Positions 470-54,460 are shown, counted from the stretch's first letter. The stretch: 64,000 nt of DNA from Bilabrum cf. latius (GCA_965178125.1 OZ237767.1:248001-312000), one strand, 5' to 3'. Numbers and translations are program-made. The notes: a model not told the origin generated them from the letters alone.

Positions 470-3400
470 TCATGAGGTCGGCCGCTCCGTTCTCATCTCC
501 ATCCGGCTTATGTTGATGTACACCACGATGCCATCTTCTCTGACTTTTTCTTCCCACCCTGCTGGCAAGGGATCACCCCCGCTATCGTCCCCAGAAGCGG
601 AGCCCTGTCTGGCTCCCACTGTCGGCCGATCGTACTGCACACGGCTGTTGGGGCCTTCGTACACGACCCGACCAGGGCCAATAAGACTTGCCGTCCATCC
701 CTCGGGAAGGTCCTGCGCCTCCGGTAAAATCACATGACCTGCATGCATGGACACTTGCCCAGGAACCCACCTTTGGTCCCGAGGGCCGCTCCACTTCCAT
801 TCGCGACAGGCACTGGACACTGCGTCCGAGCCGCTTCCCCCCTCAGTCTTGGCCAAAGGTCCGGAACGATGCCCGAAGCAAGCGAGGGTTCTTGCTAGCG
901 ATGACATGCAGCTGCAAACAGTTTCGATCGCGTCGCCGCCTGAAAGCAGCTCCCGACGCAGGTGCCTATCCCACAGCGAGGCCTCCCCCTCCACCAGCGG
1001 ACGCACGCGGCCAAGCACGCCGTCCACAGCCCAGCCGTACATAGCACGCGTGCCAGCGCTCGGTGGCCGCAGTACGGCCATGGGCCCCGCTTGCACCACA
1101 GCCGCCTCGGCTGCCGCCTTGCCCTGCAGTACTCCTGCACCGATGGCACAATCCAACACACCGCCTGCGAATCCGTGAGTCCCGATAGTCCCAAATGACA
1201 TGCTCTTAGGGCATGCTACTAGCTCGCTGCGGTTCAAAGCTCCGATAGTAGACATGTCCTTATCTGGTTTTTCGGATAGGCTACTTGCTGCCTGCAAAAC
1301 GGCAGACTCCATCATTGAATCGGTAGCACAAGAAGCCGGCAAAGTGCTTGCCTCCGCTGTTGCGATATCGATGCCTGGGGGAACATCGGCACCAGCTCCG
1401 CTTGCTGGACCGCCTTCCGCTTGGGTCTGGCTAGAACCGGTGGTGTCTCCCTCTCCGCGATCCTCAGACTCGGGACCAACGAGAGCAGCTCTCGGTACGG
1501 CCTGCATGGCGTGCTCTGCCCGACTCAGCTGCACTATCTGCTGCTGGACCCACTGCGGCCAGTTTGCCTCCCCACCATCGCGAACGACACGCACAGCAGA
1601 GTGCGAGCCTGGTCCTTCGTGCCTGCTTGACTTTTCTGCAATTCTAGCTGGATCCGTGTCTGCTTCAGATACATGGCCTTCTTCAATGTGCGTGGGAGCA
1701 CCTGCAATGCTGTCCGCCGTGGTACCAGGGAGAGTTAGCGGTCCATAGAGAGCTCCAAGTAGCGCCTGCACCGCTTCTTCAGGAGGAAGCCGGTGCTCGG
1801 GCTTGGGCTGTAGCAGGCCTCGCAGCACTGCCTCAAGAGCGGATGGGCAGCCAGCACTAGCTGGGAGCTTGGGAATCTCCACCCCACTCTGGAGCTCGTG
1901 CTGCGCTTGTGCGTCACCCCCACGTGCCTTGTCCACGTGCTGACTTGGCTTCACCACGGAGTCTGGCAGAGTTACGAGGTTTGCATCTGATGCATTGGCC
2001 TGCTCCGCCAGCAGCTCCCACATCATCCGCCCTGCCGCCCACGCGTCGCTCCACGCGTACACCTGCGCAGCAGTGAGAACTTCCCGGCCCCATCCGTCGC
2101 GTATATCATGTAATCGGCTCTGTGACCCCAGCACTACCTCAGGAGCCCTTGTTGAGCCGGCACCACCAGCCCGTAGCATCTCAGTTGAAACACCTTCAGG
2201 GGCCGCTCCTCTGCCGCAACCACAGAACAGCGCAGTCACAGTCGGGAGTGGGTGTGTTGCGCTGCCCCCTACAACAGGTGGTGAGGTATGACATTCCAAT
2301 GCAGCGGATTTTGATTGGAGTGCATCGCTCTTGTGATCGAGGTGACTTCGAACAAATGCTGCTGGGTCGTCCTCGAAAGTCTGCGATTCGGCTTCACCCG
2401 AAGTGCTAGCAGCCGCAGCAGAGCCAGTGGTAGCCGTAGATCTATTAGCTCTCTCGGGCTCGATCTGCCGTTCTACCAGACCGATAAGTGTACGATCCAC
2501 ATGTACTCGAAGCCCTTCCACGTACAGCATCGCTCCAGCCCCCCAATCACCGAGGACAGCACGGCCATCTGCCGTCAGGAACACGTTGTCAGCCTTCACG
2601 TCGCGATGCACGACCCCACGGGACCTCGCGTGCTCCAGGCCCTGCAGTACCTACACTAGCCATAGGGCCGCCTATCGCCCGGTAACTTTCATTCCCACCT
2701 CCCAGGCTGCTCGAAATGCGCCGCGAAGCGTCGTGGGGAACCGCTCCGTAACTGTCCACGTGGTCTTGCGACGAAACGTCCCGGCTCTCTGGTTGGCCCA
2801 CGGCATCCAGGGAACAAGCAGCTATGAGGATCCCAAGAACGCGTGCTGGATCGCCAGCACGTTTGGATGGCCGGTCAAGTACACGGAACCGTCTGGGTGC
2901 CTGCGCTCTCCCATCACGGCTGGCAACAGCCAGTCCTACTGCTGCTGCCGCGCCACGGGCTCGTAGTACTGGCCTTGCGGTCCGATCGGCACCAAGCCCT
3001 TCAGCACACCACGCCAGCCTTCTGACCATTTCGCCTCTCCATCGTCCTCGGACTGCACGGCCTCAATTGCAAACACGATGCTGTTGCAACCGAGTCGTTC
3101 AGCCTGGGGAATAGCGCCAGGCGTTGTGTCGTCGGGTGGGTTCCAGTGCAAGGGCCTTGCCCTTCCCCGCTGTAGAGCTGTGAGCGTCTGGGCAACTAAC
3201 CGAACCCCATCCACCACTCGGATGCGACCATTGTCGAGCAATTCGAGGATGTCTGCAGAGCCAACGGAGCTTTCCTTGAGTTTCCCGCTCGGATCCCGTT
3301 CGAGCACAGGATGCTCCCGCGTCCAGTTACCCACAGCTGCAGCCCCTGCCGCCTAGCTTCTCGACAATCCTCGCAGCTGAACGGCTAGATTGTGCTTGTA

Positions 3401-5430
3401 GGCCAAGGCCTTCTGCTCCTTGACTGCCATTGAAGAGAGCAGATCTGCTTTCAGCCCAAGGCCGACGAGCAGCTTGTGCCCATCGTCGGATCCAAGCAGT
3501 CGGGCACTTGCTGCCTCAAAGTCCCCCAGTGCCTCGAATATTCCAGCGGACAAATCGGTGCCTGGGTCCTGCTAGCTAGCATCACTCGATCCAGCTGCAT
3601 GCGCTGCACATATTGTTGCCGCCTACAGTCGAGCAACGGCCTCACTTTGAGATTGAAACAGCATTAGCCCTGCTGATTGCATCTCTCTGCGGGTGGACAA
3701 AGCAGCCTCTTCCTTGCGCTTGAGGGCAACTATAGTCTGAGCATGGATTTCACGCCGTCGTTTTTCCTGCTCAAGCTCTGCCTTGGCTCGCTGCAGCTGA
3801 GCAAAGAGGCTGTCGGGATTTGGCGGGATGTCCTTCCCTTGGCCTGGAGGTGGCTCTTCGTCTGCAGAACCTTCCGCTTCTGCCCCACCGGTCGGGGCTG
3901 GGATGGGGGTGTCTCCTCCGAGCTCAATTTCGCGGAAGCAGTCCTTGATCTTGTGCTTGGGAGGTCCTCTGACGCTCCCGTCAGGAGTCAGAGCACTGTT
4001 TTGGAAGCCGGTCTGGCACTGTGTGTCAAGCCACTCCGTCGCCTTGGCTGCCATGGCCTTGCCCTGGGCTTCGTCAAGAGGAGCTGGAATGAACCATAGC
4101 CGTGGAACCTGTCCCGAACTTGTGCTTGTGCCATTGCTGCTACCGGAAGCATCTGCAAAGGCGAAATTGATGTCAACCACGGACTGCTTTTCTTTTCCTG
4201 ATCTTCCCATCCAACCGCTGCAATTGCCTGATCCATTCTTCATGTACTGAGTTAAGCAATAGTCTGTATCTGGCTTGAGAAGAACCGCTTGCTTGAGCGT
4301 TACTCGAAGCACGCCGTGATGCTTCATATCCGTGTACTCCGACTGACCTTCCGATAGCTGCACCATCGAGCTACTGCCATTACCTTCGTGGACAGCGCAC
4401 AATGGTTTATACGTGCTCGTTCCTTTGTCACCACCGTAGCAACCAACAGCAGTCAGAATGATCGGCTTGTCTACTCGAACAACAATGGCGTCACGGCTGG
4501 ATGGGCCCATACCCCAGCTACCAGAGGAGCTCGCTGCTCCATCATCATCGGGATTTAACCGATTCACGTAACATTCCAGACCTGGATAGGCCTACCTCGG
4601 GCCACCGGCAAGCCCATCTTGGTTGCACCTGATGACATACTTTTGCAGCTTAACCTTCTTGGCAATGTCAAGCGGAGAGTCACCATCCTGCTGATTTTGG
4701 CGCATAAATGAAAATATGTAGACTCTACACAGAAGCAAACATCGGATTGTGGCTATTTTTGCGTGGCTTCCAACCGTCGTGCTTCCACTGCAAGCCACCT
4801 AGCTGTTCTCAACAGTCTTACCTGGTTCTTGATCCAAAGGTTAGCACCGGCTTGTACCAATGCCAAAATGATTGCCTTGCGTCGATTGTAGGTAGCAATA
4901 TGCAGAGGCGAATTGCCGTCCTGCAAGAATTGGGCGGATCTGATGATCTTTCACGTGGGCCAAACGATTAAGATCCAACTAGTCGTAATACAGCGTTTGT
5001 CTCTATTAACGTCTTACTTTACTTTGCTTGTTCACTTGCGCTTTAGCGTTTACGAGCTCATCGACAACATCTTGCCGGCCTTCGAGTGCTGCCAAGAAAA
5101 GAGGTGTCCGCCCAGCCTACGGTTGGATTCATTAATAGCAGTGGTATGCAATAGCTGCCATCATCGTGATTATGTGCGACTTAACCTGTCCAGGATCCAG
5201 TCGAATATGAATCCTGGCAGCAAGGACCGTGCAGTCCCGGGTCCTGGTACACCCTCATATTTCATACGATGGCAAATACATACTTTTAAGGTCTCTCAAA
5301 CTGATACACATGCATTACGGAGGGGTTGTACTCACTTCATCCTCGCAATCTGGGATAGTTCCATCGGCAAGTTGCTGTCGCACCTTCTCGATACAGCCAC
5401 TTCTTGAAGCCTCAAGCAACTCCTACCTGC
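470..5430 (-). CDS. Multidomain protein: ankyrin repeats - PHR domain - coiled coil - PINK1-like Ser/Thr kinase - two WW domains (5' ankyrin exons spliced; first exon unresolved)
   Basis: ORFs 4592-4798, 3623-4567, 3353-3553, 2936-3334 and 470-2611 share one frame and are joined only by TAGs; ends TGA at 470-472. Ankyrin exons AGRTPLFLAALEGRQDVVDELV and DGNSPLHIATYNRRKAIILALVQAGAN have GT-AG borders. PHR motif SSNGTSTSSGQVPRLWF. Kinase HPNVLAIQHAF..LV*VLQGLEH..HRDVKADN..DWG..RAPEV..SDAWAAG. WW motifs LPEGW..RP and LPAGW..RP. Confidence 0.85.
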
Positions 5431-6349: not shown

Positions 6350-9300
6350 TCACCCCGCCCCCGGTGCTTCCAGTCCCAGCACGGTAGACTCGGGCTGGTG
6401 CCCCCTCGCTGCAACCACGACGCACCGAAGCACCTTGCAGAAAGCCCGCCGCGCATCCCCCGTCCCCTCCGCCCCAGCCCCACCGTCTCGCCTCCCAACG
6501 GAGAACAGCTTCAGCCAGCCCACCAGCACGCCCACCGCATACTCCCTCCCTTTTCCCGACAGGAAGCAAGACCCTGTTTTGCCACCTCCGCTCGGACCCA
6601 CTCCGACAGACGCCCCACCTGCCCCTCTTCCCCCGCCTGGCACATGACCGTCAATCAGCGCATCCCGTATCCCAGCGCCCACTGCAGGACCCGCCATTGC
6701 GCCCAGCTCCAGCAGTGCAGCCCCCGCTCGGTTCCAGAGCCCAGCAGGCAGCGAGTGCAGACAGGCCCGCATGATGGCGCTTGCAATACGCATTGCCTCT
6801 TTGCTGGCAACTGCCGTGACCACTGGTCGCAAGTGCTGCCGAATCGCCGCCATGACAGACGCAGGTGTCGCATGGCTCGCCTCCACCGCGCTCTCTCGCG
6901 GTCCGCCTGGCGCGCCCGATGATGTACCCGACGGCGACCGTTTCCCCATAACCAGTTGCGCCTGATGCACCGCTGATGGACTAGGATCAGTCGTGCTGGG
7001 CGCCCACAGCTGCACGAGAAAGCCCAGAGCCGCCTGCTGCACAGTGCTAAACCCGCAGCTAAGTGCCCGAATGGCGGCCTGCACGATACCGTGCTGCCTG
7101 GCAGGGTCCTCCATTACGATCCTCGGAGCCAGTGCTAGGAGCCTCGTGCTCTGGTCAAACAGGGACACGCCGAGTGCCTGCGGCCCTGCCGTGTGTTCCC
7201 CAGGCGTACGTCCCTCCGCATGGGCTCTCGTGTCACCGCCATCAGTGCCATCACTGCCACTACCAGCCGAAGGGCCGCCCATCGATTCGAGGCCAGATGC
7301 ACTAGCACGCTGCTGTGGTCTCCCAGCTCCCGCATCCAAAGCTGCGAGGAACGTCTTGCACGCTATCGATAGTGCCTCGCTGCCCTAGTCTACGAAGAGC
7401 CTCTGCGCCCGCTGGTCGGACACGTGGCCTAGCTCGCCAATGATGAAGACCGTGGCCTCCAGTGCCCCAGGGCTCCTCGTGGCTCGCAGCACCTGCACCA
7501 CCGCGGGTAGGACCCGAGGTAGCACAGGCAATGCCTCACTGCGCGCAGCTTCGATCGGAGCATGTAGGACGTCCACCAGGCCACGCACGGTGTCCTCTGG
7601 TGCCGCCGTGCCGCTGCCCACCACCTTCTTCGCCACAGCTTCTAGGGCGGGCCAGGATGCCTGCAGCAGCTGCACAGCCACAGGGGGCTTGCCCCTGTCT
7701 GCAGGCCCATTCGCTATTCCCCTGACACCCTGAATGAGGGCAGCAAGTAGCTCCAGTGACTGTGCAAGCGAGCTAAACGCACCAGCTGGAGAAGTGCCAA
7801 TGCCAGTGCCACTGCCTGACGATGCCGCAGCGGCGGACGGGCCTGCCCCCAGCAACGACGCCCCCGCTCTCGCACCACCGTGCGATGCATCCACGCCGCA
7901 GCCACGGAGCAGCTCATCGGCAAGGGGCGCGGCCAGCATTTTCATGTAGCGAAGCACCTGATCCGGGGGCGCCGACCCGCCCACCAGCCCCGCGGTTTTC
8001 AGTATCACGCTCAATCCATCGGTTGGGCAGCCAGACCTCCGCGCCGCCAGGAACGCATCTCGCAGCCTGGAGAGATGCGCGGGGGTGGCGAAAGCAGGCA
8101 ACTACCTGCCAACCAACGACCGCAGGGCGGTGGCGGCAAACTCTGCCGCCTGGGGAACAGATAGTGCTCGGCACAGAAACCCGAACAGCCCTTGCAGCAA
8201 GTCGGCCTTCGATGACAACACCTTGGAAAACTTCCAGCAGCAGAACGCTGCACCAGCCACCACGGCAGGATGGCTCACAAAAGGCGCCTTCTGCGCAGAG
8301 ATGCCTTGGAACACGCTGTTCAAGAACCCGCTTACCTTGGCGTGATCCTCTGGTCCCAACGCGAGCCCTGCCGCAGCCCCCGTTCCAGCCCCAGGCATGG
8401 CTCCAGGCGCCTTCAGCCCAGCTGGCACCGGTGCCGGGCCCTTTTCCCATGCTTTTTTCAGCGGGATGTGGCAGCAACGGATCGCGAACAGAACCACTTC
8501 CACAGACTACCACCCCGCCGAACCGTCCGCCGCGTGCCCCAGCAGCCCCCTCAGGTAGCCCAGGTACCCAACGGGGCCCAAATCCTCCATGCACGCTTCA
8601 AGGGCGGGTTGCACGCTGCCTTCTCGAAATCGATTGAACTCGTTCTCGTCACACGCAGTCCCGAAGTCGCCACCGTCGTCATCGGGAGGTTCGTACGAGT
8701 CCCAAGAAGAAAACCCGTCGGGGTAGGCAGATGCGCGCAGTAGCGACTCTACAACCTATTTCTAGAGCGGGAGATCGAGACCCGGTGCCCTGCTGGGCAG
8801 AGGCACTTCGTCCCGCAGCGTGGTCCATGCCTCAACGGCTATGCCAGCCACCTGCAGGTTGGGCGATGCAGTTGCGTCCGCGAGCAATCGCATCACGCCG
8901 AGCCCCACCCCCGGTCTCGGTGAGTCTGCCCCGGCAATCACGGCAGGCGAGGCGTCGAAGCATGCTAATGCCACATTGGTGAGCCGGCGGCATGTGCCGT
9001 GGTCTCTGGCGGCAACCGCCTGCCTAAAATTCTCGTACGCAACACCGAGCAGCTGTGCCATCTTCACGATTCCGGCCTTTGTCTGACTCGCGAGCTGCAT
9101 GGCCTGCTCGGCTGCCTTCTGTCTCTGAGCGGTGGAGTCCCCAGGGTCCGAAGGCGACTCGCCGCCGTCCACCGCGGCAAAACTGCCGCGGGATCGGCGC
9201 GTGCGGGTGGATACGGCGCTGCCCACGCTGCCGGCCGCGCCACCGTGCGATGCACCCGACAACCTGTGCCTTCGTCGCACGAGTCCGCTATCGAGCTGCC

Positions 9301-10785
9301 GGCTGCTGCTTCCAAGCCGGATTTTCTGCTGATCCAGCTGTTCCCCAGCGCCTCCCAAGAGCCCAAGCAAGGCGTCCATTGCCGCTTCCGCCGCGTGCGC
9401 GCGTTCCGGGCTCAACGGATACTTCACAAGGGATTGGGGTGCAGGCTCTGAGGCTGGGCCCGGGGCGTGCATGGCCCCTCCTACCAGCATTGCCGTCGCC
9501 TTGAGCAGCAGTACGGGCATGTTGGTCGCAAGTAGGGCGAGGGTAAGACCTGCCTGGGTCAGGGGCTGCAGAGCACGCATGGTGTCTGCTGCCAGGGGGC
9601 CAGCGGCGGAGCAATGGGGTCGGGTTGGCCGGATGGTGCCCAGCCCTGGTGCTGCCAGGGCAATAGGGCTGGTGTCACCCACGTCCACGGCGGCCGACAT
9701 GATCGTGACGAGTGCGGGTAGTCTGGGTGTGACGACAGCAAGCACATCGTCCTTGGCCCTATGGGGGCGGAGCAGAGTCTCTTGCCCGAGTGCCTGCGTT
9801 GCAGTGCAGTGCAGTGTATACAAAGGGTCTACACTAGGACATTCGATTTCTGGGCACCAATAGCGAACTGAGGTAGCAGTGTGGGCAGCAAGCGGCACAC
9901 AATTTGATAAGATGCTATCAACCCTATGCAACCTAGGCAAGGAACTATAGTGCCCCAGACACGTTGCCACGCTGTCTGGGCGCTGGCATGCGACTGCCTC
10001 GCTGCTGTGCCGTCTCACGCTCAGAACTCGAATGCCATGCTTCACGCGAGCGCATGTATCCGTAGAATCAGCGCGTTCTTTCGTGGCGATAGATTCCAGG
10101 CTCGCGCCTGTTCCCTTGCCTGCTAGTTCATGCCGTGGGTTCCTGGCCGAAACTGAGCATAGATGGGCAACGCGATCGAGCAACTGCCCAATGCGGTCGG
10201 CGCCCATCAGAGCCGAGCAATTAGCATACAGTAGGTACATACGAGCCAGCACTGGAGGATTGGCAGCGCCATTTTGCGCCATCTTGCTCAGGTGGTGCCA
10301 AGCAGCATCTTCGACTGCCACCCGCCTGTCCTAACTCAGTCCTTCCCAAGAGCGACGAACCTGCGGTACATGCACCTAGTAATATCATGCAAGCGTGCGT
10401 GCACAGCTTGGGCTATACTCTATGTTCTCCCCCACGAGATGGCTGTATCTCACCTTCGCCAGCAGCAAATTAATTCCGTAGAGCGCAACAGTCGGATCAG
10501 GGTGGCGCATTACCTCCAACGCAGCTTGCCATGCTTCAGAGCTCTCCTGAAAATTAACAAGCCATGCGTTGGCCCGCTCTTGACTCGGACCCTCCCTGCG
10601 ATACGAAACTCAAGACATGGTTGCGCCTAGTAATTGCTTGGCGTGCCAGATTGACCGTACAGTAGCAAAATCTACATGCACCGCACCTTGTTGCAGCTGT
10701 TATTGCTTTGGCCATCTATACTGCATGTTTCGATGGGCTTGGTCCCAACGACATTGATCGAATGAATGAATTGTTGAGCTTGCAT
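6350..10785 (-). CDS. Transportin-3/importin-13-like karyopherin-beta (introns in 5' part)
   Basis: N-terminal exon SQERANAWLVNFQESSEAWQAALE (IBN_N-like); YPDGF..EFNRFR and W*SVEVVLFAI motifs. ORFs 8762-10321, 8102-8503, 7385-8101 and 6350-7339 are collinear through TAGs (8762, 8756, 8507, 8102, 7385); ends TGA at 6350-6352. Confidence 0.8.
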
Positions 10786-10884: not shown

Positions 10885-12359
10885 TCATGCTATTCGAGGC
10901 GCTGCAGCCCCAGCAGCAAGCGGACCGGTGGTCCACGCTCCTCCACGAGACCTGTTGGCCGCCGCCGCGTGCGCTGCAGACGGCCGCCTGCATGGTTCTC
11001 TTCGGGACTGCGGGCGAATAAGCGTCTTGCAAGTAGGGCAAGAGCCGCGCAGCTGTAGCCAGCCATCAATGCATGCCATATGGAACACGTGCTGGCCGGT
11101 TGGAGTGCAAGGAAGCCGTCGAACGAGCTGCCCCGCTCGCAGCGCCTGCTGACAGATGACGCAGCTTTCCTTTTCACCCCTCCGTGCTTCTCCCGGCCCA
11201 ACGGACGATTTCGTATGCGGACTTCCTGATCCATTGTAGCTACTGCAAGCCTAACCATGACAGCGTGTTGGGTTGCTCTACGTCTTCTCCATCCTTGGCC
11301 GGGCCGGAGCAGCTGGGGCTCGCCTTGTCGATTGCTGCGTCCCAGCCCGTGCCCATGCACATCGATGGTTCCGAGATCCTTGTTGAGCTAGGCATGGCAT
11401 CTGGTCCAACGAAAAAGAACGGCTTCTGGATGCTGTCGAGGGCGCAGTCGCGCCCCAAGCATGGATGCGGTGAATCTCTGCCAGTGGCGTGCTGCCGCTG
11501 CTGTGCACGCAGGGAAACGTCGCTCTTCGGACCTGCGATGCAGCTGCGCTGGCCTCTGCATTATAATGATGCTGTATCCTCACTGGATTGATGACTTGTA
11601 TGCTGCCAATATCATTGGAGCCACTATCTGTCCGGCTTGCTGTCAGCGGCTTGGGTGATAGAGTTGCCGTCTCGTTACCTCGCACCTCCTCCGCCTTGAC
11701 TCCGCCTAAGCCCGAGTCATTGGCGGTTTGGGGAGGCGCATGCCCTTCATATCGTACCACGGATAGTTGTTGCACTTCTGCAGGGCTCAGACCGCGCATT
11801 GCCTGCTGAATGGCGCCGTGCAGTCGCTGCGAATCATCAATGTGCATGCCTGCTTCCGCAGACTAGCACCCGAAACAGGCGCATACTTGGTACCGACACC
11901 TGTAGTGCCCTCCAATGAATATCATCGAGGGTCCAGCAAGCAGAGATAGCATCAATACGGCGCTAATGCCCATGATGGCTGCCAGTGTGCTGTTCGACCG
12001 ACTCGAATCGTTTGCAATGCAAATGAGGCCCACGGTGGCCCACAGCCACCCAGCGACCTTGCACAGCAGCGCATATGTTCCAAACCCACTCGGACATGAC
12101 TATTCTAGAGATTCAGTATTATCGCTGGCTCTTCCTGCCTGAAAGTCTTTCTGCACGGCGAAGATGGCGATCACTTGGGCCGCAAGCAGCTAATGCACCC
12201 CAATCCAGGACCACTCCCAAACCTGGTCTTCTAATGAATCTATGCTTTGCACTGCAGCAAGTGCGGCACATGCGAATAATTGAACAACATATGCAACCCA
12301 TAGTGTCGAGACCTGCGATGCTTTCACGGAACAGACGCCGGTTGAGGCTGCTATGTCAT
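10885..12359 (-). CDS. Transmembrane RING-H2 E3 ubiquitin ligase (spliced; start uncertain)
   Basis: VRRLPC..HVFHMACIDGWLQLRGSCPTCK RING-H2 C-terminal half; GLSPAEVQQLSVVRY (GLD-like motif); hydrophobic segments at ~11900-12080; TGA stop at 10885-10887. Confidence 0.7.
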
Positions 12360-13077
12360 GGCTTCGTTAAAAAGTGGGTGAATATGTCTCAAGGCGACTA
12401 CCCGACCAGCTCCTCTCCGAGCGAATATTTCACTCTGATTGAAGTGTCATAGGCTGCTATTACATTTGTTTGAATCACTTGGGGCTCTGGCCAACCTAAT
12501 ACACTCACAACAATCGGCTTCCACCCACGACCGCCGCAGGAAGCGCAGCTCTATTGTGTGCAAAGTTCTACAGCTATCCCCATCTAAACACCTGCGACAA
12601 TCAGTTAAATATGAGCAAAAAATTATTAAGTAGTCGCTCTGACGCCGATAAGTAAATTTTGCTTTCGGAAGTCAATGCAACAATTCGACGTTTTGGAACC
12701 GCTCATCTGACGCGCTATGGGTCGGTTGCCGCATCACAGCTCATTGAACCGGTATCTACTGCACATGATGGAAACATATTATCAAGAACTGGTAGTTTGC
12801 AGTATTCATGGACTCCTTACTCTGTGTAGTGCAATATATAATGGATGAATGGTAGGTCGGTGCACAGCCAGTTCCACCCATGTCGAATCTTTTAGAAACG
12901 ATAGTGCAGTGCACCCCGCAGCGGCATGCATCGCATTGTACAGCACGCCTCGCGAGAGACCAGCACTGATACATATTTCCTCTTGGTAGTTTCAACTCAA
13001 CCAAAGGCGCACCTGCACTTCAAGCGTAAACAATGAATTGAGACCCTAGCATTGACCAAAATTAGACTGGCGGGATC

Positions 13078-27396: not shown

Positions 27397-27473
27397 AATT
27401 CAATTGTCAGAAACTTTCGTGCGTGGACGAAGCACCAACTTTGATTCAGGAGTTTTTTTGTAACGTGCGAAAT

Positions 27474-34180: not shown

Positions 34181-34392
34181 GACCAAATCGGATTGTCTGG
34201 AGCTTTCCAGTCGTACCGCTCGCCTGCAATATTCCTCTCTAGAAGCCTGAATATAAAATAAATTGAATGGTGCGGGTCGATGTATCCGGAGTATGGCTAC
34301 AACTAGGCCTACTGTGGGTGTGTATCCAAAATCCGGAGTCTGGATCGAAATACAGATCCTACGAGTCGGAAATGCTCGTTACTAGATTTTGA

Positions 34393-36291: not shown

Positions 36292-36424
36292 AGTCTGGTA
36301 GGTCCCGGGCCCTCGTTCCAGATGTTTCTTCGTGATAGCGTGCGCTTTTGAGTTGAGTCCACAAAATATCAGATCCCCCCCCCAATTTCCTCTTGGTCCG
36401 GTCATTTACCACGTACATTCCAGC

Positions 36425-38373
36425 ATGAAGAGATCCCGTGATTATGATCAAACCAATTTGGAGCAGCCCGCCTCTCAAAAGCCCCGGGTCGATCAACTCC
36501 CCCAACTGGATGCCGAGGCTCGGTAGGTCCGGCTGAGCAAGCTCCAGCGGTAGATTGCCCACGAATTTAAAGCAGACTTTGGTAAAAAAGCTCGCGAAGC
36601 ACTAAGTGAAACGATGGATCAGCAAAAACTAGCGGAAGCTTCTCTTGATACGGCTGTGAAGCGGCAGCAGCAGGGCATGCCAGCAGACGTTGAGTAGGCC
36701 AAGAGGACCCTAGAGGAAGCCAAAGCAATGCACGAGCGATATCGATAGTTTGCAGAACAAGCTGAGCTGACGGATTTACATGAGATGATGGACAAGGTCC
36801 GTCTGCTCCGAGGCGTGTCTGTGATTGGAGCTCTGCGAGCCGGCGAAGAACGCGCAGTCAGAACCACCGGTGAGACCAAACGCACAGAGAATTGCACGCT
36901 TTAGCTCACAGCCATATTGTTCTTGACATTCTCCCGCCGAAAATCGCCGTCAAACCGCCCACAGATAGAGACACAATGCGGTGCTTCTCGTGCGGCAATG
37001 AGGACCAGGGCTGCTTCCGCACTCGTCACGAAACGGGCGACACAGTGTGCACAAAGTGCGGCGTGGTGCAGTCACAGCGGAACGCGTTCGACGGGGACTG
37101 GACCCGGAGCTTTGAGGGGGACGATGACAAGTCACAGACGGGCGCCGCCCCCTCCCACCTGCACTCGGCCTCGTACAACCTCCGCACCAGCCTGGGCGGG
37201 ACCGAGGGGGTGAGCAACGAAGTTCTAAAAACGCTGCAGAGGGTGCAGAAAACGATCGATGATGACTACACCCACGGGGCCGTGAAGGGCGAGCGAAGGA
37301 CGAAAGACTCGACCAAGGACCGACAGAAGGAGCGAGCCTTCGACAGCATCAAGCAGGTCGCTGACAAGCTGGCACTGCCCGAGCGAGTGGTTGCAACCGC
37401 ATGCAACCTGTTCGCACAGTTCAGGGACAACCGAGAGAACCTTCACGCCTACGAAAACGTGCTGACGGCTTGCCTCTCCGCTGCACTCGAGGACATGCAG
37501 CAGGCGTACACCAGGCAGCAGCAGGCGGTGGTTGAGCTCAAGGCTCCTGCGGGTGGGGCTGGCGCGGGTACATCGGGGGGTGCAGGGGGTTATACGGGGG
37601 GCGGACTCATTGCGTCTAGTTCTGGCAGCAGTGCTAGTGCTAGTGCTAGTGCTAGTGCTAGTGGTGCCTCGGGCTAGCAAGGACCGGGGGATGGGGCTGT
37701 TGCTGCTGCTGCTGCTAGCTCAGCTCCGTCAAGCAACAGCGAAAATGCAGATGACGAATTTGTGGTATCTGTGGAGGGCGGGGCCCAGGATGGGGCGGCA
37801 TAGAGCCCCGTAGGCCCCGTGGGAAGCAATGCGATTCAGTCGCAGATGCTTCCACGCAGTACCGGGGTGGTGTCATCTCAGCATGTGGCAGGAGAGACAT
37901 CTCCATCTTCATCTGCAGCTTCGGTCACTGCCACTGCCCCTGCGCCTTCCCGCCACATAGTAGTAATCCGGTCCGAGGCGGGACCGAAATCGGAGGCGGA
38001 GCGTGCGCAGCTAGAATTAAAGCGGAGGCGGTTCGAGGCGGACCTGAGGCGACGGACGGCTGCCGTGGCAAAGACGACGTTCGTGTCGATCGGTACTGCC
38101 CTCGGTGCTGGTAGTAGTCGCACGGGTAGGGGCGTGGGCCTAGGGCGTGGCAGGGGCAGGGGCAGGGGCAGTGCAGGCAGGTCCATGCCTGGGAAATCGC
38201 TATCCCGAGGCCTGGGTGGTGTGACAGGTCAGTACGGTTTGATAGGGTCTAGCAGACGAGCCGCAGTCGGAGCAAGCAGCAGCAGCAGCAGCAGCAGGAG
38301 CGCTGGATCTAAAGCTAGCAAAGGGACTGTTGCTAGTGGTAGTAAGGCAGGCAAGCAAGACGGAAAAGAGTGA
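36425..38373 (+). CDS. TFIIB-related factor (N-terminal helical extension, Zn ribbon, single cyclin repeat, low-complexity tail; intron ~36869-36964)
   Basis: CFSC..GDTVCTKCGVV..WTRSF Zn ribbon/B-reader; RAFDSIKQVADKLALPERVVATACNLF cyclin fold. First exon from ATG 36425 is open only with TAG read-through (4 TAGs); TGA at 38371. Confidence 0.75.
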
Positions 38374-38437
38374 TTTGTCACAAACATGCATCCAAATGCC
38401 ATCACCAAAATCTTGCTTCAAATCACGTGCATCTGCA

Positions 38438-39481
38438 TCAAATCATGGGCAAAAACACACCGTGCAGCAGACCGAGCATCTGCAGCTCGGTAAGCCGGAA
38501 GTGCCTCCGCAGGCTCTCCACCCCGTCCACGAACTCCGCCGCGCTGATCCTGGCGTCCTCGTCCGAATCGAGCACTTTGAACCACTCCGTTGTGGCCTCT
38601 TCCGGTGCTGTGCCCCGCTTGTACAGCACAGGCACCAGACACAGGCGAACCAGCCGGTCCAGCTCGGTGACGTCGAGCCAGCCGTTGCTGTCCTTGTCAA
38701 GCTTCGCGAAGGTTCTCTTTCGAACGTTCACGTAGGTTCGATCGATCAGTGCATCATCCGGGTAGATGCACCCGCTGGTGCTGCCTGTGCTGCACTCCCT
38801 CAGTAGGAGCACGCTGGCAGCAGAGGAGGTGGCTCGCAGGGAAGGGCCGTCAGAAGGGGACAATTGGTGGGAAGGGGGGGCATCTTTCACGGAGACTTCG
38901 GATGGATCTTTGACTGCGCCTTCCTTGGATGTCTTGGGATCATCAAGTGTGCCGCTGGCAGCGAATTCGGCGGCGGGATCACTGCCTGTGGCTGCTGTTG
39001 GGTGCTCGCCGGCGGCTTCAGAGGCCCCTGCTGCCCCGCCGGCCGTTGGACTAGCGATGTCTGCCTTCTTTGCCTCCTCTTCCAGTGCTTGCAGGGCATC
39101 TCCCATGACTTCGAACAGGATCACACGACGCTGCGCGTCATCTGCCGGCAGCGAGACCGGCACGTTGAGCGCTGCGAAGCGGATCATGGTACCGATGAAC
39201 TCGTCCCTGCTCAAAGAGGCGTTCCGGTCCTCGTCTGCCATATCAATAGCGGCTGCTGCAACTTTTAGGGCGGCCTCAAATGGGGGCATCATCGGTTCCG
39301 ATGTACCTCGCTTCGTCTCGTCTCGCAAGAACATGCCGAAGAATATTGCACTCTCCGCTAACTCGATCGAGCCATTGCCGTCCGCGTCAAACGCATCAAA
39401 TACGGCCCCAATACGCTCCACGAGGATGCCCAGAAGCTCCTTGCCAGATATCTCAGGAACGGTAGGACCAGCTGATGCCAT
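38438..39481 (-). CDS. EF-hand calcium-binding protein (4 EF loops)
   Basis: DADGNGSIELAE, DEDRNASLSRDE, DKDSNGWLDVTE, DSDEDARISAAE; ATG to TGA intact. Confidence 0.9.
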   Translation of the reverse strand: MASAGPTVPEISGKELLGILVERIGAVFDAFDADGNGSIELAESAIFFGMFLRDETKRGTSEPMMPPFEAALKVAAAAIDMADEDRNASLSRDEFIGTMIRFAALNVPVSLPADDAQRRVILFEVMGDALQALEEEAKKADIASPTAGGAAGASEAAGEHPTAATGSDPAAEFAASGTLDDPKTSKEGAVKDPSEVSVKDAPPSHQLSPSDGPSLRATSSAASVLLLRECSTGSTSGCIYPDDALIDRTYVNVRKRTFAKLDKDSNGWLDVTELDRLVRLCLVPVLYKRGTAPEEATTEWFKVLDSDEDARISAAEFVDGVESLRRHFRLTELQMLGLLHGVFLPMI

Positions 39482-39741
39482 TTGACAGAATCGGCCTACC
39501 GACTCGTCGAGAGTTGTTTGGCAGAGTCACCAACGGGGCATCACTATAGCAAGATCCGACAAGAAATATTTATAAAAGGGTCTAGTGTGGATGGTTCGGC
39601 AGCGGACAGAAGCAGAATCGGAGTAAGTTTGTCGTACCTGTCCGTTCAAGTCTATCGTGTTCCGGTTCCGGCTTGCCCGCCAGCGCAACTCCGGCAAACA
39701 AACCAACGGCAACGCAAACTTCATCATCGAGAAAAGCTCGT

Positions 39742-42700
39742 TCACCGAGCAAAGGAGCAAACGACCCTGCTTGCCACGGCAGGCCCCAGGCCTTCCACGA
39801 ACTCCTCGAGTAGCCCTTGCAGCTGCTCCTGCCCCGCCTAGGTCAGCTGGTGCAGAAACACCATTTCCGAGTCGGACTTGCGCCCGATCTGCAGCGGCAG
39901 TCGCGGGACGATCGATCGTGCTATCGCTTGCGCCCTTTTTTGCTGCTATTCCATTGTTTCGGAGGCGGCGTCGGGATTCTCCACCAGCGAATACGGGCAG
40001 TCGGCACTGCTGCTGGAAGCAGCCGAACCAACTGATGATGTTCCTTCAATCCCGCCTGCAGCGATACCCGCAACCACAACCGCGTGTTTGCTCGTTGAAG
40101 TGATGTCTTCATGCGATGCACCTGCATGCCCTGCACCTGCTCCGCTCGCAGCCTCCGCGGCCCCATCAGCCCCAGCCCCAGCCCCTGCCGCTGACTTTGA
40201 CTCACCGCTGACCTCTGCGCGCCACTCCTCTCGCGCAGCAAGTGCTCCCGTTGGAGCGAGTACAGCAGACTTATCTTCTTCCAGCATGGGAATAGCCACG
40301 GAAGCAGGCACCCAACGCTTCCGAGTCGAGCAAAGCAGGTCGCTCGGCTGGTAGTCCGCCTTGTACTTCATCTTCGTGCAGCTGTGGATGTAGAAACCAG
40401 CGTACCAGTACCGCAGCCTGGGCGACACCAGGCGGCACACCGTCTGCACCCATTGGATCTCCCTTAACGCGGTGTACCTGCCCAGCTCCAGCTTGTTCCT
40501 CTCCGGGGCGTAGAACACGTACACGCTCGACAAGCACTGCGGCAGGATATCAACCACGCCGACAGCCACGAGGTCTCCCCTGTACCGGTATTTCATGTGG
40601 AATGACCCATACCCCAGCTCCAGAGACGTGCCGCCGTCGTCTTTGCCCGGCCCCAAACTGCACGCCACTGCGTTCTTGCCGATTCCGCTGAGTAGACTCC
40701 GCGCATCTGACTCTGAATGGCTGGGTGCCACAGGCTTCGAGGAATGGCTGCTGCTGCTGCTACTGCTAGACGACACAAAGGATGCAGCAGATCTGCTTGA
40801 CAATGTGACCGACCTCTCAGCGCCTGCCCCGGCTCCCCCAATTCCGGCATTGGTCTTCTTGCACAGCAGACGGAGGCCGAGCCCAGCCCCTTCTCCGTCG
40901 GCCCATGCCCTCTACATAGCGTGCTAGCCCAGCCCGGAGGCTTCCTCCAACCCGCTGCCCTTGCCCTCGCTGCTGATCCTGCCAGCAATCTGCTGTCCAA
41001 CCTGCTCCAATAGCTATATCTAGCCTTGAGCACCAGCACCACCACCACTCCCATTACCTGGGAGCAGCAGCAGCACTCGCGCCGCCTCATTCAGGTTGCC
41101 CTTGCTCATGGCAATTGCCCCTGCGCATGCAAGCATTGACTGCTTGCCAGCCAGCACTCTGTGAAGAGCACCCACCATATTCAACACGTTCCCGTCTGCA
41201 CCTTCAGGCTTGCCGGAGCCGGACGCCTCCACTGCGGCTCGCAGCAAAGCCTCCGGGTCCTGAGGCTCTGCAGTGCTGGCAGCAGCATCTTTCGGCGCTT
41301 GATCGTAGTGAGCAAGGATGTCTCCGTAATCATACACCCGTGGTACCACAGGCGCACTGCCCAGCCCGGGCGATGTCCCTTTGAACGATCCTGCATGCGA
41401 TGCAAGCTGTTTGGCTCCCGCACAACCAGTGCCCGAGCCGCCCACCGCTGCTGCTGCTTCCTAAGCCGCTGCTGCTTCTGTTTCCTTACCTGGTGCTTCA
41501 GGCACTTGGACAGAACTGATTGGGCGCGTGGATGGCAGCAACCACCCATCCTCCACCCTTCTCTCTCTACCCATCGCCCGCTCGCTCATGCTCGGGGCAT
41601 GCAGCGGTCCGCCCTTTGGCTCTGGGATGAGCGGGCTGTCGCATAGAAACCTGGTGTAGCCTTTTCTTGTTACCTCATCTGGTTTGTCTCCATGCACGGC
41701 GATCTGATACCTCTTGTAAAGCTGGAACGATTCCTCCTCGAAGCTGGAGGGCACCATCTCCACCTTCCAGTCTGCCAAGCCAGGTAAGCTCGCGGCCGTT
41801 GCTCGGTGGCCAGCGGCACCATCTTCACTCGGCCTAGATTTTTCCGATCTATTTCCACGCGCACCTTCAGCCGCACTAGCTACCACTCCTTCAGTCATTG
41901 CATCGTCTCGGCTACCGCCAACTGTGCTTTCTTTCCCTCCCTCTGCCCCTGCCCCTGCCCCTCCCTTGCTCTTGCCACTGCCACTGCCACTGCCACTGCC
42001 ACTGCCACTGCCACTGCCACTGCCACTGCCACTGCCACTGCCACTGCCACTGCCACTGCCACTACCACTGCCACTGCCACTGCCACTGCCACTGCCACTG
42101 CCCTCAGCCTCGCTTGTGCCCTCCGTTGGGTGCTCGCGCGTGGTCGCTGCCACCAGTGAGGCCTGTATGCGAGAGTGTAGGTCTGTCCCGGGGACAGGGC
42201 CGAGCAGAAGCACGCCCCCAGGCCCCGGCCGTGCCATCATCGCCGGAGCATCGCTTGCACCCGCCCAGGCATGGATCCCAGCGGCGATGCTGTGGGCGGC
42301 TGCGCGGCGCTTCCCCTGCTGCTCCTGTTTGGCTCGCTTCCGGGCTGCCTTCTCTTCCTTGGATAGTGGAGCGGATACTCCAGCAGGTATTGATGTCTTG
42401 ATGGCTGTGCTATCTTGCAGCAGTGTTGCCGCTAGCTTCATGGGGTACTGGGCGGCCCAAGGCAACGACTCGCTGTCTGCTGCATCGGGCTTTCCCGACT
42501 GCGCTGCAGCACCAGCTCCGGTTCGACGCTTCTTGCAACCGTGCTGCAACGCACGGTTCATCACCAGCGAAATGCTCTGGGCGAGTTCTTTCGCCAGTCT
42601 GCCAGTACCGTCATCTTTGGCCGCCGGAGCGCCGGGCATTCCCGCATCCACCCAGGACCGAAGAAACTCGCGGCACAAAACATTTGCGTCCGGCGGGATG

Positions 42701-43080
42701 TGCAATTCTCGGGAGCGTTTAGGGGCTGACGGGCTGTGCTTGGTCGGCTTCGATGCAGCACCAGATCCAGGCTACTCAACTGTTCCAAGAGCTACCTTCC
42801 GAAGCAGCCGATTTTGCTATTTGGTTGCCTTGAATCGGAGAGAATCCAGCCGAATCGTTATATTGGGGCAGCAGTGCTTCTTGTTGTTCGGAAGGTACAG
42901 ATAGGTCCCGCTCCTTCTCCAGCCCCGGTCGATCATTGCCTGATAATCCTGGCAAGATAACTGGTCCGCATTGGCCCCGAACGACTCGTACTCGGACCCG
43001 CGCGATCCATGACAGTATCCGCAACTGCCATTATATGCACCGTGCGGGCGCAGGACGCTTAAGCCATCGAAACCAGCCAT
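39742..43080 (-). CDS. ATE1: Arginyl-tRNA--protein transferase 1
   Basis: [119 protein letters not shown]. Pieces joined by TAGs (e.g. 42817, 41461, 41020, 39946); TGA at 39742-39744. Confidence 0.92.
41973..42101. repeat. (TGCCAC)~21 hexamer tandem encoding a (Gly-Ser)n tract inside ATE1
   Basis: Near-perfect tandem with one variant unit at ~42063. Confidence 0.95.
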
Positions 43081-43209
43081 GATGCTGAGTGAGTTGCAGC
43101 CGCCGGTCTGTATTTGTCCTTTAGTTGCGTGGATCTTCGCAGGAACCCTGGACTGCGTCGTGGCACGCATCGACTCGTGTGGCACGCACAACATTATTTA
43201 TTTTTAAGT

Positions 43210-46200
43210 ATGAGTGCGTTTGATGACGCGTTCGCGGGATTAAGTGAGATAGCTGCCTCATCCTACCACTCCTGTTGCAGGTCGTTCGTGCACTGAATGG
43301 CATTCCTACAGAACAACGCTTCAATCTGTTGGAGTCATACTGTACCGCAGATGATTCTGCGGGCAAGCCATCGCAGCGACCCGTAATGCGTGGTGTCGTG
43401 CAGCAAGCTCCAGCTGCCGCCGAGCAGCAGAAGCCAAGCATCGCTGGGCGAGATCCACTGCCAATCGAGATTCCTTCAATGTCGGCTAAAGAAATCAAGG
43501 CGTACCTGCGGAGGAAGAAAGTTGATTTCTCACAATGCTTGGAGAAGAAGGAATTCGTGGATTTGGCCGTGAAGGTCGCCACGGGCTCGCTCGGGCTGTC
43601 AGGATCTCTTCTCGCCGGAGGCACGTCGTCCACCGGCGCGGCCTCCAGCGCCGTTGCAGACGCACTCGCCGCAGTGGACGAATTCGAAATCGCGGGCATC
43701 AAGTCAAAGCCCGGCGAGAAAGGCGCAGCCGCAGCGGAGAGCGACCACGTCCGCCAGTTCGCGATCGGAGCACGCTCCGGGCCCAAGCTCGCCCAGTACA
43801 AGGCAGCGCAGGCGGCCACCTCCCTCTCCACCACCGCGGTGCCCCCCGCCCCTCCAAAACACCTCGGCTGCCCCATCCCCGCCGCGGCTCTCGCTCCTTG
43901 CCTGAGGGAAGTGCCCTTCCCGTACCTGAGCGCCTGCCACACGGAAGTGGCCCAGACTGCAGCGGAGATGCAGGCACGGGCGAGTGCTCGCGCGCAGCAG
44001 ACCGCGGCCGCACTTGCGGCAGCCACCTCCCACGCAGTTGCGCGCGCAGTGGCCGCAGCGGAGGCACAGACCGCGCACGAGGCCAAAGAGGCTGTCGAGC
44101 TCAGGCGCTCCCTCCTTCCCTACCGCAAATACCCCAAGGGCAGGGTCGGCCACCGCCGGGTGTTTGAGCTGAGGTTGCGACCGGACGTGGGTGCTGTGGA
44201 TGCACTCAACTCGATGGAGATGTCGGGTCGGGCCGCTGGATTCCGGGCGGTGCACGCCACCCGCCGATCTGTGCTGATGCAGCAGGTGGTGCAAGTGCCG
44301 GCAGCCACTCTTCGGGAGTACGTTGCTTTGGCTGAGAAAGAAGCTGCGGAGGCGAAGCTGGACGCAGAAAACGCAGCCAAGTAGACGGGCGATGGGGGAT
44401 CGTCTGGTGCGGAACATGCAGGACCGAAGCTTGCCACGGGTGCGGCGCCGGTTCCGCACAACCCGGTGCGGTTCACGGAAGCGGTGCAGTCGGTGGCCGA
44501 CAGGCTGGCAGACCGGCTCGGCGGCAGCGGAACCGGCGCCGCGCAATCATCCTACGTGAACTCGGTGACGGCGATGCTCGGCACGGATCCCGAGGGTCGC
44601 CGGTGCTGTTTCCTGCTGGCCGCGGCCTACACGGTGGACAAACCGGTTGACCTGCCGCAAGGCGTGCCGGTGGTGCGCAGGGCCAGACCCGGCGGCAAGA
44701 TGCTCAGAGTGTTCGATGACTGGGAGACAATGCAGGCCAAGGATGGCAGCGGAACCGGTACCGGCGCCGCGCAATCCGCCGGTGGGTCCGGCAGTGGGGC
44801 GGGCGGTGGTGATGGAGATGGTGATGATGACGACGACGACGACGCCGATTTTTCCGCGCTGCTCGGGTCGGAGGGGGGGGTGGCCATCGGGCCAAAGACA
44901 GCGGGGCAGACTGAGTGCTGCCTCGCTCCCGAGCTGCGCGGATTCGGAATCGCGTGCGACGTTGTTCCCCCGGAATCGGAGTCACTGGCGCGGGCCTCCC
45001 TGCCCAAGGTGAAGCCTGTGTTCCCTGAGAGCGTGCCAGGGGGCGCGCTGCCGCCGTGGGCTTGTCTCCGAGTGTCGGTCCTTCGGGCAACGGGGCTCGG
45101 CTCGGGGACTGCCGGATCGTCAGTCGGCGGGGTAGAGGATGAAATCGCGTCTCTCGGGTCGGGAGTGGCCAAAGGCGACGGATCCACGTCTGGATCTCCG
45201 GCCATGTACCGCCGGTTCAGGCTGGAGCGATGCTCCGACGAGCTCGTGCAGCAATGCTGCGCGATCGCAGCTGCCGCCCGATCGAGGAGGGGACCCCAGC
45301 GAGCGGCGGAGGGAAGCAGACAGGCACCTCTGGCGGGCGGATCATCGGGGCTCCGGGTCCTTGCTGAGGGTGCCTGGGCAGACGCGCTAGAGGTGGCCAA
45401 AGAGGAGGAGATGGGGCGGAGGGGTGAAACAGCCGGCCTCGCGTCGTCGTCTCCGGGTGCATCGCACGGTGGTGCGGGCTGGACACGCGGCGAGGTGGGT
45501 GATTTCCAGCTGCACGAGGAGTTTGAAGAGGACCTGGCCTCCCACACGCGAGCCAGGATGCAGAGGAGGCTGTATCGGCAGGCCACCGGCCCCGAGGCGC
45601 AGGCACGGCTGGACGAGTGGAGGGCGACGCAGGTCCGTTCTGCCCTTGCCGAGGCGGCCGGGGCATGCATGGTGACGCTAGAGGCAGACCAGCAGGTACC
45701 CACGCTGCAGGAGTATGCCCAAGCGGAGGAGGGGGCGAATGCAAGCGGTCCGGCTGGAGTCGCGGGGGTCCCAGGTTCGATTCCCAGCGTGGGCGAATTG
45801 GTACCCCCGGCGGAGGCCCGCCCAGAGAGCGAGTCGCGTCTCACGGCCGGGGAACAACTTGCGACCAAGGTGCTGCTGGATGCGTTCGCGCGTTGTGCTC
45901 GGCTCCAGGCCCAGGAGCGGGTCGCGCTGGTGACGCCGGCCCGCGCAGCCGACGAGGAGGAGTCCAAGCGGGCGGCGAGGCAGCGAAGGCACGTGAGCCT
46001 GAGGCGATCTGCAGCATTCCGTGCCTCTGTGGAGCGCGTTCGTGCGATGCAGCAGGTGGCAGCACCCAGGCAGTCCAACCTGCACGGATACCCCATGGCA
46101 AAACTAGCCGTTGAGTAGTTCGAGGTGCAGGACACTGCAGTGCTGTTCGGAACCACGGCCTCCGTGTCGGTGGCCTCCAGCGGGCACCTGCTGGTTACAA

Positions 46201-47489
46201 CCACCGAGGTTCTGCTGGCGTACTCTGCGCTGGGACTGGGCTTTGGCGGCATGAACAAGATTCGATTCCGGATCACGGACCTCTGCGGTGCGTTCCGCGC
46301 GCCATCGCAGGGTGAGCACGGAGTGGCCTTGGTGTACGTGGCAAGGGAGGGCCAGCGGTTCTCGGATGGGCCGGTTCCGCAGACCGTCCGCGGCGCCGCG
46401 CCAGCCGTGCAGCTGGGGTGGGCCGCGCTGGAGGATGAGGAGCGAGCCAGGCTGGCTGGGCTGGGCGGCATATCCGCCCTTGATGTTCTCTAGCTGAGCC
46501 TGGGAGGGAAGGCGGGCCAGCTGCTGCTTCTCCTCGCCCTGCTGCGGCAGGGGCTCAAAACACCGAGGACTGCCCTCCTTCCAGACAGCGACGAGGGGAG
46601 GCGGGCAAAGCTGCAGCAAGATGTGGCCAGACTGGTGGACGCAGAACGGGAGGAAGAAAATCGAAATCCAAGGTCGACCCAGGCGGCGGGCGAACCCGGT
46701 GCCAACGAGGGAAGGAAGGAGGAAGAGGAAGAGGAAGAGGACCTCTTTGCCGCGGCACCCGCAACCGGCTCCGCTGGACAATCGGCGGCGGTCGAGGCGG
46801 TACTATCCGCGGGTATGACGAGTGGGGGTGCGGCCGAGGACGGCCCACGCGCCGGAGAAGAACAAATCGACCTGTTCGGCCTGCTGGCCGCGAGCGAGAC
46901 CCGGCGAAGGGCAGCCGCATCGGGTGTCGGTGCTCGGGGGCAGCGCGCGGGGAGCAGCGGAACCGGCGCCGCGCAGAGCGGGCTCGATGAGGATGCGGAC
47001 GAGCTGGAGGACATTTTCAGCGGGATGCAGGCGCAGGCCGAAGCGCGCGGCGCCGGTTCCGCAGCCCCAGGTCTAGAGACAGGCGATGCTGAGGCCCCCC
47101 CAGCTCAGAGCGGAAGCGAATCGCGACCAGGACTCAGTGCTGAGGTACAAGAGAAGCTGGATGGCGGGATGTCGGTGTCGGCCATGCGGAAGGTACTCCG
47201 CTCGGCTGGCGTTGATGCCTCACGGAGGGGCGTGACAGAGAAGTCGGAGATGGTGTCGCTCGTGAGGTCGGTCCTCGCCGGTGAGGGCGAATTCGCGGGG
47301 TAGCAGCAGGCCAGGGCGGAAGCAGAGCTCCTGGGAAAGCCTGCCCCCCTCACGGGGTACAGTGGGGAGGGCCCCGGGACTATTTCCCGTGGAGGCAGCG
47401 GCGCTTCGTTGCGCAGCGACAGGGCAAGCTCTGCCAGCATGGCGCAGCAACCGCGTCCGGCCTCTGACGATCCGTTCGCGGGGTTGTAA
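43210..47489 (+). CDS. Large hypothetical protein with two MSxKEL..EKxE helical motifs, possible GRAM/PH-like segment and terminal DD(A/P)FAGL motifs
   Basis: ORFs 43275, 44466, 46125 and 46623 are in frame via TAGs; ends DDPFAGL-TAA at 47487-47489. First exon MSAFDDAFAGL. Motifs MSAKEIKAYL..CLEKKEFVDL and MSVSAMRKVL..TEKSEMVSL. Confidence 0.6.
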
Positions 47490-54453: not shown

Positions 54454-54460
54454 CAAATAA

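Follow-up and report, generated by a model that had tools for sequence, protein, structure and literature searches.

UAG very probably encodes glutamine, with UGA and UAA as stop codons, in a GC-rich eukaryotic genome that carries an integrated virophage

We analysed 64,000 nt of DNA from Bilabrum cf. latius (GCA_965178125.1 OZ237767.1:248001-312000; this whole stretch is called the window, and positions are counted from its first letter). The GC-rich part of the window (~60% GC, positions 1 to ~47,600) carries eukaryotic host genes and the AT-rich part (~30% GC, from ~47,800 to 64,000) is an integrated virophage. In the cytoplasmic translation of the host, UAG is very probably read as glutamine, and termination probably occurs only at UGA, the usual stop, and at UAA (NCBI table 15). 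This reading is based on the statistics of the reading frames, on RNA-derived contigs, on the orthologue from a close relative, on a conserved position in a protein kinase and on the exchange of TAG and CAG among the copies of a repeat. The same evidence bears out an earlier, sequence-only reading of this DNA, which had proposed that UAG encodes glutamine while UAA and UGA remain stops. TAG would then be a third, minor glutamine codon (~12% of the glutamine codons in host genes and ~30% in the virophage). The sample throughout consisted of 14 host genes and 14 virophage open reading frames (ORFs), all within the window.

The standard code chops the host genes into pieces. When frames were taken from stop to stop with TAG read through (some counts were restarted at the first ATG), we obtained 13 host frames of 493-1456 amino acids (aa), with the coordinates and stops that the sequence-only reading had listed. 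These 13 frames contained 78 in-frame TAG, no internal TAA and no internal TGA, and they ended in 12 TGA and one TAA. The same 13 stretches contained, in their two remaining frames, 97 and 93 TAG, 37 and 40 TAA, and 198 and 254 TGA (TAA plus TGA: 235 and 294). TAG thus occurs at about the same frequency inside and outside the coding frame, while TAA and TGA are strictly kept out of it. Counted from the first ATG, 70 TAG were present in 12,721 host codons, with an even spread that occupied every decile of gene length. TAG was carried by 13 of the 14 host genes, the exception being the EF-hand gene, and the TAG-containing frames encompassed Pfam domains (PHR and protein kinase, RING, seipin, 3'-5' exonuclease, PARP, and ATE_N with ATE_C). 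The host genes, and the one TAG codon that is discussed separately below, are as follows.

470 to 4840, minus strand: PHR-domain and protein-kinase gene; nine TAG from stop to stop (eight after the first ATG); TGA end at 470-472; Pfam
2651 to 2653, minus strand: TAG codon at the conserved glutamine of kinase helix E, LV(TAG)VLQGLEH...HRDVK; PDB alignments
6350 to 10384, minus strand: large gene with no family assigned; seven TAG (five after the first ATG), one of them at 8507-8509; TGA end
10885 to 12366, minus strand: RING-H2 finger protein gene; five in-frame TAG; TGA end; Pfam
13042 to 16242, plus strand: seipin-domain protein gene; seven in-frame TAG; TGA end; Pfam
16590 to 20795, plus strand: frame of 1401 aa without a Pfam family; nine in-frame TAG; TGA end
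20981 to 24040, plus strand: gene with a C-terminal 3'-5' exonuclease domain; four in-frame TAG; TGA end; Pfam
24691 to 27399, minus strand: frame of 902 aa without a Pfam family; six in-frame TAG; TGA end
28332 to 30347, plus strand: frame for an Arg/Gly-rich protein; one in-frame TAG; TGA end
31040 to 34378, minus strand: gene with a PARP catalytic domain; nine in-frame TAG; TGA end; Pfam
34393 to 36291, plus strand: ORF of a high-copy repeat family, without a Pfam family; six in-frame TAG; TGA end
36874 to 38373, plus strand: gene with a sub-threshold match to the TFIIB zinc ribbon (19.7 bits, cut-off 29); two in-frame TAG; TGA end
38438 to 39526, minus strand: EF-hand protein gene; no TAG; TGA end; Pfam
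39742 to 43197, minus strand: arginyl-tRNA-protein transferase (ATE1) gene with long insertions; nine in-frame TAG; TGA end; ATE_N and ATE_C
43248 to 47489, plus strand: gene of ~1367 aa from the first ATG; four in-frame TAG; the sole host gene with a TAA end (47487-47489)

The terminators gave a complementary picture. The 14 host genes end in 13 TGA and one TAA and the 14 virophage ORFs in 11 TAA and three TGA (12 terminal TAA across the two sets), with no TAG in either. Internal TAA or TGA were absent from all 12,721 host and 3,731 virophage codons. If TAA also encoded glutamine in the host, ~18 TAA would be expected from the 70 TAG and the CAA:CAG ratio of 102:402; as none was found, TAA remains a stop. 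The corresponding prediction for the virophage (129 CAA, 6 CAG and 59 TAG) is many TAA, and the number of internal TAA observed was again zero.

Could TAG nevertheless still terminate translation at some sites? We consider this improbable. One gene does weigh on that side: in ORF 34393-36291 the last two TAG precede the TGA by 10 and 7 codons, and in this gene translation may end at a TAG. In five more host genes 32-94 codons separate the last TAG from the stop, and over such a distance a TGA or TAA could plausibly occur downstream by chance. On the other side stands the even distribution of TAG along the genes, from the first decile of their length to the tenth. In addition, all 28 ORFs possess a TGA or TAA end and none requires a TAG end, although the sample is too small to speak against rare termination at TAG. 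In ATE1, the 31 residues past the last TAG align with the C-terminal segments of homologues, and the C-terminus lies level with those of homologues P0188, P0190 and P0191, directly before the TGA; judging from this alignment, the TGA is the true end of the gene.

If UAG is a sense codon, which amino acid does it specify? The helix-E TAG of the kinase gene had been placed on a conserved glutamine by the sequence-only reading, and it was indeed aligned with Q in all five of the alignments displayed among 217 PDB matches (NEK1, NEK7 twice, a PKR-NEK7 chimera and EGFR). Closer comparison was possible for the PARP-like protein, whose homologues were collected in a full HMMER search and whose fragments were aligned by BLASTP. 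Three fragments from a close relative, P0006 (residues 1-93), P0001 (128-473) and P0003 (582-690), were each 82-84% identical to it. At the TAG sites the relative has Q at positions 76, 302, 358 and 604 and E at position 443, and Q at four of five sites is in keeping with the overall identity. Moreover, P0006 and P0001 stop exactly before the TAG sites 94 and 474, which is what a standard-code gene caller would give if TAG stood there. The relative therefore shares the code, so that at least two related species would read UAG as glutamine.

Variation among the copies of the repeat family to which ORF 34393-36291 belongs provided a third comparison. The family reached a contig depth of up to ~5760, against ~35 elsewhere. 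Of 38 listed variants we analysed the 33 inside the ORF (three lay downstream of the stop and two in other genes). All three variants that touched a TAG were exchanges of TAG and CAG (at 35161, 35806 and 35836), and 20 of the 33 were synonymous when TAG was counted as glutamine. As an aside on the element itself, the variation is mostly synonymous over the first 1.4 kb of the gene, and together with the very high copy number this suggests that the ORF belongs to a recently active, protein-coding mobile element.

TAG also behaves like a glutamine codon in its neighbourhood and usage. CAA or CAG was the neighbour of 10 of 70 TAG (14.3%), a rate second to that of glutamine codons (17.7%) and followed by the next residue at 12%. 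The earlier observation that TAG often sits in runs of glutamine was confirmed, since the contexts QQQ(TAG), LL(TAG)Q(TAG) and ME(TAG)QQ were all present. In the host the order of the glutamine-type codons is CAG (402), CAA (102), TAG (70), and in the virophage it is CAA (129), TAG (59), CAG (6). Codon use therefore shifts with GC content as expected of synonyms. A further proposed example was only half borne out: the context W(TAG)SVEVVLF is present, with the TAG at 8509-8507 in gene 6350-10384, but the importin-13 identity that would make this TAG a conserved glutamine found no support. Neither the whole protein nor a 391-aa piece of it had a PDB match, and the only Pfam match was to PF24140 (TNPO3/IPO13), with an E value of 0.23, far below the cut-off.

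Several alignments weigh against glutamine, or at least do not favour it. Besides the E at site 443, the fragment P0002 (57% identical by HMMER and 53% by BLASTP) has R at site 921 of the PARP-like protein. At ATE1 site 126, none of 30 homologues has Q (D in 20, S in three, A in two, and E, K, R, G and T in one each); the following column is a nearly invariant Q in these 30 sequences. A second ATE1 alignment gave A, D, S, S and S at site 126 and E, E and P at site 1119. PARP site 604 is occupied by L, M, H, Y, L, K, A, K and L in nine distant homologues, and in the DUF285 paralogues of the virophage TAG stands opposite Y, K and M, within divergent stretches. The alignment with the mavirus major capsid protein (MCP) pairs TAG with K, T, V and G; like the DUF285 pair, it is too distant for a reading of the residue. 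The TAG columns of distant homologues are variable and thus speak neither for nor against glutamine. When the ATE1 C-domain was used to scan metagenomes, 15 loci were found (best identity 59%), all of them consistent with the standard code and none of them a close relative.

These alignments raise the question of whether TAG specifies a residue other than glutamine (Glu, Tyr, Lys or Leu, for example), as happens in other eukaryotes with an altered code. The E at one site in the close relative, the E, E and P at ATE1 site 1119 and the pairing with Y and K in the DUF285 paralogues would fit such a code. We nevertheless regard it as very improbable, as the close relative has Q at four of its five sites, the kinase position is Q in every displayed alignment, and each of the three repeat-copy changes at a TAG exchanges it with CAG, in a set of changes that is mostly synonymous.

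The reading of UAG as glutamine presupposes that the TAGs reach the mature mRNA. A 9.5-kb test stretch was present, at least in part, in 19 listed sequencing runs, and we compared four of them (X1, X5, X6 and X7, from three studies) with window positions 30900-47600, as contigs and not as raw reads. Run X1 had a flat, DNA-like depth and did not differ from the window outside the one repeat family. In the other runs we found joints with GT..AG ends, 36868 to 36964 in X5, X6 and X7 and 43243 to 43351 in X5 and X6; neither joint was present in X1. X5-X7 come from two studies other than that of X1, and the depth of X6 and X7 was very uneven between genes. From the spliced joints, and for X6 and X7 also from the uneven depth, we infer that the contigs of X5-X7 are RNA-derived. 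Two facts count against this assignment: X5 was rated 'probably DNA' by the tool, so that its assignment to RNA depends on the spliced contigs, and no run among those listed is recorded as RNA. The X5-X7 contigs covered all 24 TAG of genes 31040-34378, 36874-38373, 39742-43197 and 43248-47489 with no differences, and an X5 contig covered 30900-34301 (the PARP-like gene), also with no differences. As the TAGs were unchanged in contigs of runs with spliced joints, they are neither spliced out nor edited. Within what contigs can reveal, this rules out splicing, editing and errors of assembly.

That the TAGs are untranslated, as assembly errors, in pseudogenes, or through splicing or U-to-C editing, is accordingly so improbable as to be nearly negligible. 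We found no support for it, and its only opening is a formal one, namely that the runs were compared as contigs. Every TAG that lies outside the repeat family is the same in X1 and X5-X7 as in the window, the GT..AG joints fall only in gene leaders and never at TAGs, in-frame TAA and TGA are wholly absent, unlike in decayed genes, and the gene predictions of the relative break at the same TAG sites. The leader introns themselves lie upstream of the first ATG, at 36869-36963 (95 nt) and 43244-43350 (107 nt); over the 16.7 kb examined in the contigs of X5-X7, no introns were seen within coding sequence.

A further test of UAG as a sense codon was offered by the virophage, whose ORFs contain 59 in-frame TAG, distributed over 12 of the ORFs with 1-13 per ORF. 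Within the ORFs there was no internal TAA or TGA, while the other frames held up to 46 TAA. Domain matches ran across TAGs (Pfam rve, penton and DUF285, and the alignment with the mavirus MCP). Because the virophage is translated by host ribosomes, its sense TAGs independently confirm that TAG is a sense codon in the host cell, and they show that the virophage is adapted to the variant code. Its recognisable features are as follows.

47600 to 64000: AT-rich (~30% GC) integrated virophage, which continues past the end of the window
48597 to 50281: two DUF285 genes; Pfam
50897 to 52516: GC-rich insert of ~1.6 kb whose split direct repeats are arranged as A1-[about 1 kb]-B1-A2-B2
53267 to 54424: rve integrase (PF00665, 43 bits, cut-off 32.6), with a weak chromodomain
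58575 to 59675: ATPase-like ORF at the expected place, with the P-loop GKSGSGKS; no Pfam match
59684 to 60259: protease-like ORF at the expected place; no Pfam match and no meaningful PDB match
60596 to 61549: penton (PF21507, Sputnik V18/19, 29.2 bits, cut-off 27)
61621 to 63510: MCP (mavirus MCP 6g45, E 5e-8; Pfam V20 C-domain at 17.6 bits, below the cut-off)

The best match of the virophage MCP among solved structures was the mavirus MCP 6g45. We found no close relative of the virophage MCP, ATPase or DUF285 proteins in IMG/VR, and no match to the MCP in a set of 5.8 billion proteins.

How could UAG be read as glutamine while UAA is retained as a stop? According to Panek et al., a tRNA with the anticodon CUA is needed if UAG is to be read and UAA is not (PMC5304391; this and the other sources are represented here by excerpts). 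By analogy with what is described there, the host would possess a tRNA-Gln whose CUA anticodon pairs with UAG and not with UAA and which, in the simplest case, differs from tRNA-Gln(CUG) by a single mutation. As in other UAG-only codes (PMC5304391), its glutaminyl-tRNA synthetase would accept this tRNA-Gln(CUA), and the N-domain of its eRF1 would have lost the recognition of UAG while keeping that of UAA and UGA. Two points are to be set against this account and the reading as a whole. A tRNA scan of the 64-kb window found no tRNA genes, nor does the window contain eRF1, and the evidence for the code is confined to the 28 ORFs described above. An Rfam scan of the window likewise gave no matches, and hence no rRNA.

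The code itself is already known (NCBI table 15: Iotanema, Hartmannula, Trochilia and Protocruzia; PMC5304391, PMC11687900). Iotanema spirale (Fornicata) has the same assignment, with UAG as glutamine and UAA and UGA as stops, in a nuclear code outside the ciliates (PMC5304391). In contrast to the present genome, where TGA ends 13 of the 14 host genes, its primary terminator is UAA, and it is a transcriptome-only case (PMC5304391), whereas here the code is seen in genomic DNA of ~60% GC with an integrated virophage. The phyllopharyngean ciliates Hartmannula sinica and Trochilia petrani, as well as Protocruzia tuzeti, also read UAG as glutamine without UAA, and their TAG is distributed along genes like the other glutamine codons; in these three, however, UAA accounts for 93.5-100% of aligned protein ends (PMC11687900), while here TGA is dominant and the genome is GC-rich. 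These reports agree with the earlier remark that UAG-only glutamine codes are rare and are known from Iotanema and phyllopharyngean ciliates.

Codes in which both UAA and UAG (UAR) specify glutamine (table 6) are recorded from many ciliates, hexamitid diplomonads, Streblomastix, Ulvophyceae and Amoeboaphelidium protococcarum (PMC11687900, PMC5304391, PMC6299283, in excerpt). They share with the present case the change from stop to glutamine, presumably through a mutated tRNA-Gln, and they differ from it in that TAA is a stop here, with no internal and 12 terminal occurrences. According to the same excerpts, a change of UAG alone was for a long time considered blocked, and the recorded cases amount to a handful of eukaryotes: Iotanema and three ciliate lineages (Gln), one rhizarian (Leu) and Scotinosphaera (Ser) (PMC5304391, PMC11687900).

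Which organism is the host? The sequence-only reading had suggested a Cafeteria-like bicosoecid, and this was not supported. The GC content of Cafeteria is ~70% (10.1101/751586, in excerpt) as against ~60% in the host, and no named Cafeteria protein was present among the ATE1 matches. The likeness to Cafeteria is circumstantial only, in the form of a mavirus-like virophage with a Ngaro-like insert. The EMALEs of Cafeteria burkhardae are similarly AT-rich virophages with an rve integrase inside a GC-rich genome, and they can contain a GC-rich Ngaro insert with A1-[..]-B1A2B2 repeats (PMC8547959, in excerpt); in contrast to them, the virophage described here uses TAG as a sense codon and its insert is only ~1.6 kb long. 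Other candidates fared no better. Amoeboaphelidium, an aphelid, is ruled out by its GC content of ~40% (PMC10608142, in excerpt) and by the reported use of TAA, too, as glutamine. Halocafeteria was rejected, as it has 47% GC and its preprint mentions no variant code, and Iotanema is unlikely because its main stop is UAA (PMC5304391).

What is new, then, is not the code but its setting: the genome is GC-rich and its dominant stop is TGA, the code is shared by at least two related species, and an endogenous virophage follows it. A literature search that did not cover supplementary tables found no paper on UAG as glutamine in a bicosoecid or another GC-rich flagellate, and none on a recoded virophage. 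A further, apparently independent case with UGA as the main stop and a GC-rich genome widens the conditions under which UAG alone can be reassigned. The sequence was found in runs of several studies, some of DNA and others that we take to be RNA, and the organism may therefore be available in culture; in that case the tRNA-Gln(CUA) and the eRF1 changes predicted above become directly testable. There is also a practical side, as standard-code gene callers shatter such genes, and public protein sets already hold fragments of the relative's proteins (P0001, P0003 and P0006).

The virophage shows that parasites of such a cell adopt the code of their host, and by the same logic a helper giant virus should do so too. 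Some genomes of giant viruses that were assembled from metagenomes (GVMAGs V2) annotate best under alternative codes (PMC13524828, in excerpt). As here, a viral genome with TAG as glutamine implies that its host has this code. They differ from the present case in that the viruses in question are giant viruses for which no host is known, whereas here the code is seen in cellular host DNA and the virus is a virophage. As all confirmed giant-virus isolates come, according to the same excerpt, from standard-code hosts, a host with UAG as glutamine is a missing piece for recoded metagenomic giant-virus genomes. We tentatively raise the idea, possible rather than probable, that this lineage is the natural host of a three-level system of cell, giant virus and virophage that all read UAG as glutamine, with the first recoded virophage. 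If this were true, the helper giant virus would have to avoid TAG stops or use TAG as glutamine, and orphan giant-virus genomes that read TAG as glutamine would gain a concrete, possibly culturable, kind of host.

Some smaller features of the window deserve mention. Low-complexity and UBA-like insertions, which are also present in the relative P0185, make ATE1 about twice as long as usual, and a long in-frame (GS)n repeat in this gene, at 41930-42112, interrupts the contigs of all four runs. An AT-rich stretch directly precedes the start codons of the virophage. The two DUF285 (BspA-like repeat) paralogues of the virophage stand in tandem and are 265 aa each, one with five TAG and the other with one, and they share promoter-proximal sequence (48534-48656 and 49421-49543, 87% identical). 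The AT-rich part is interrupted by a GC-rich island at ~50.9-52.5 kb, the insert listed above, whose repeats are exact: A1 at 50897-51073, B1 at 52054-52184, A2 at 52184-52360 and B2 at 52386-52516. This layout is Ngaro/DIRS-like; the insert has no recognisable reverse transcriptase or recombinase domains and is too short for autonomy. Beyond the last virophage ORF, at 63882-63981, lies a tandem array of a 20-nt unit (ACTTTCCGAAGTTGGTTCAC and variants).

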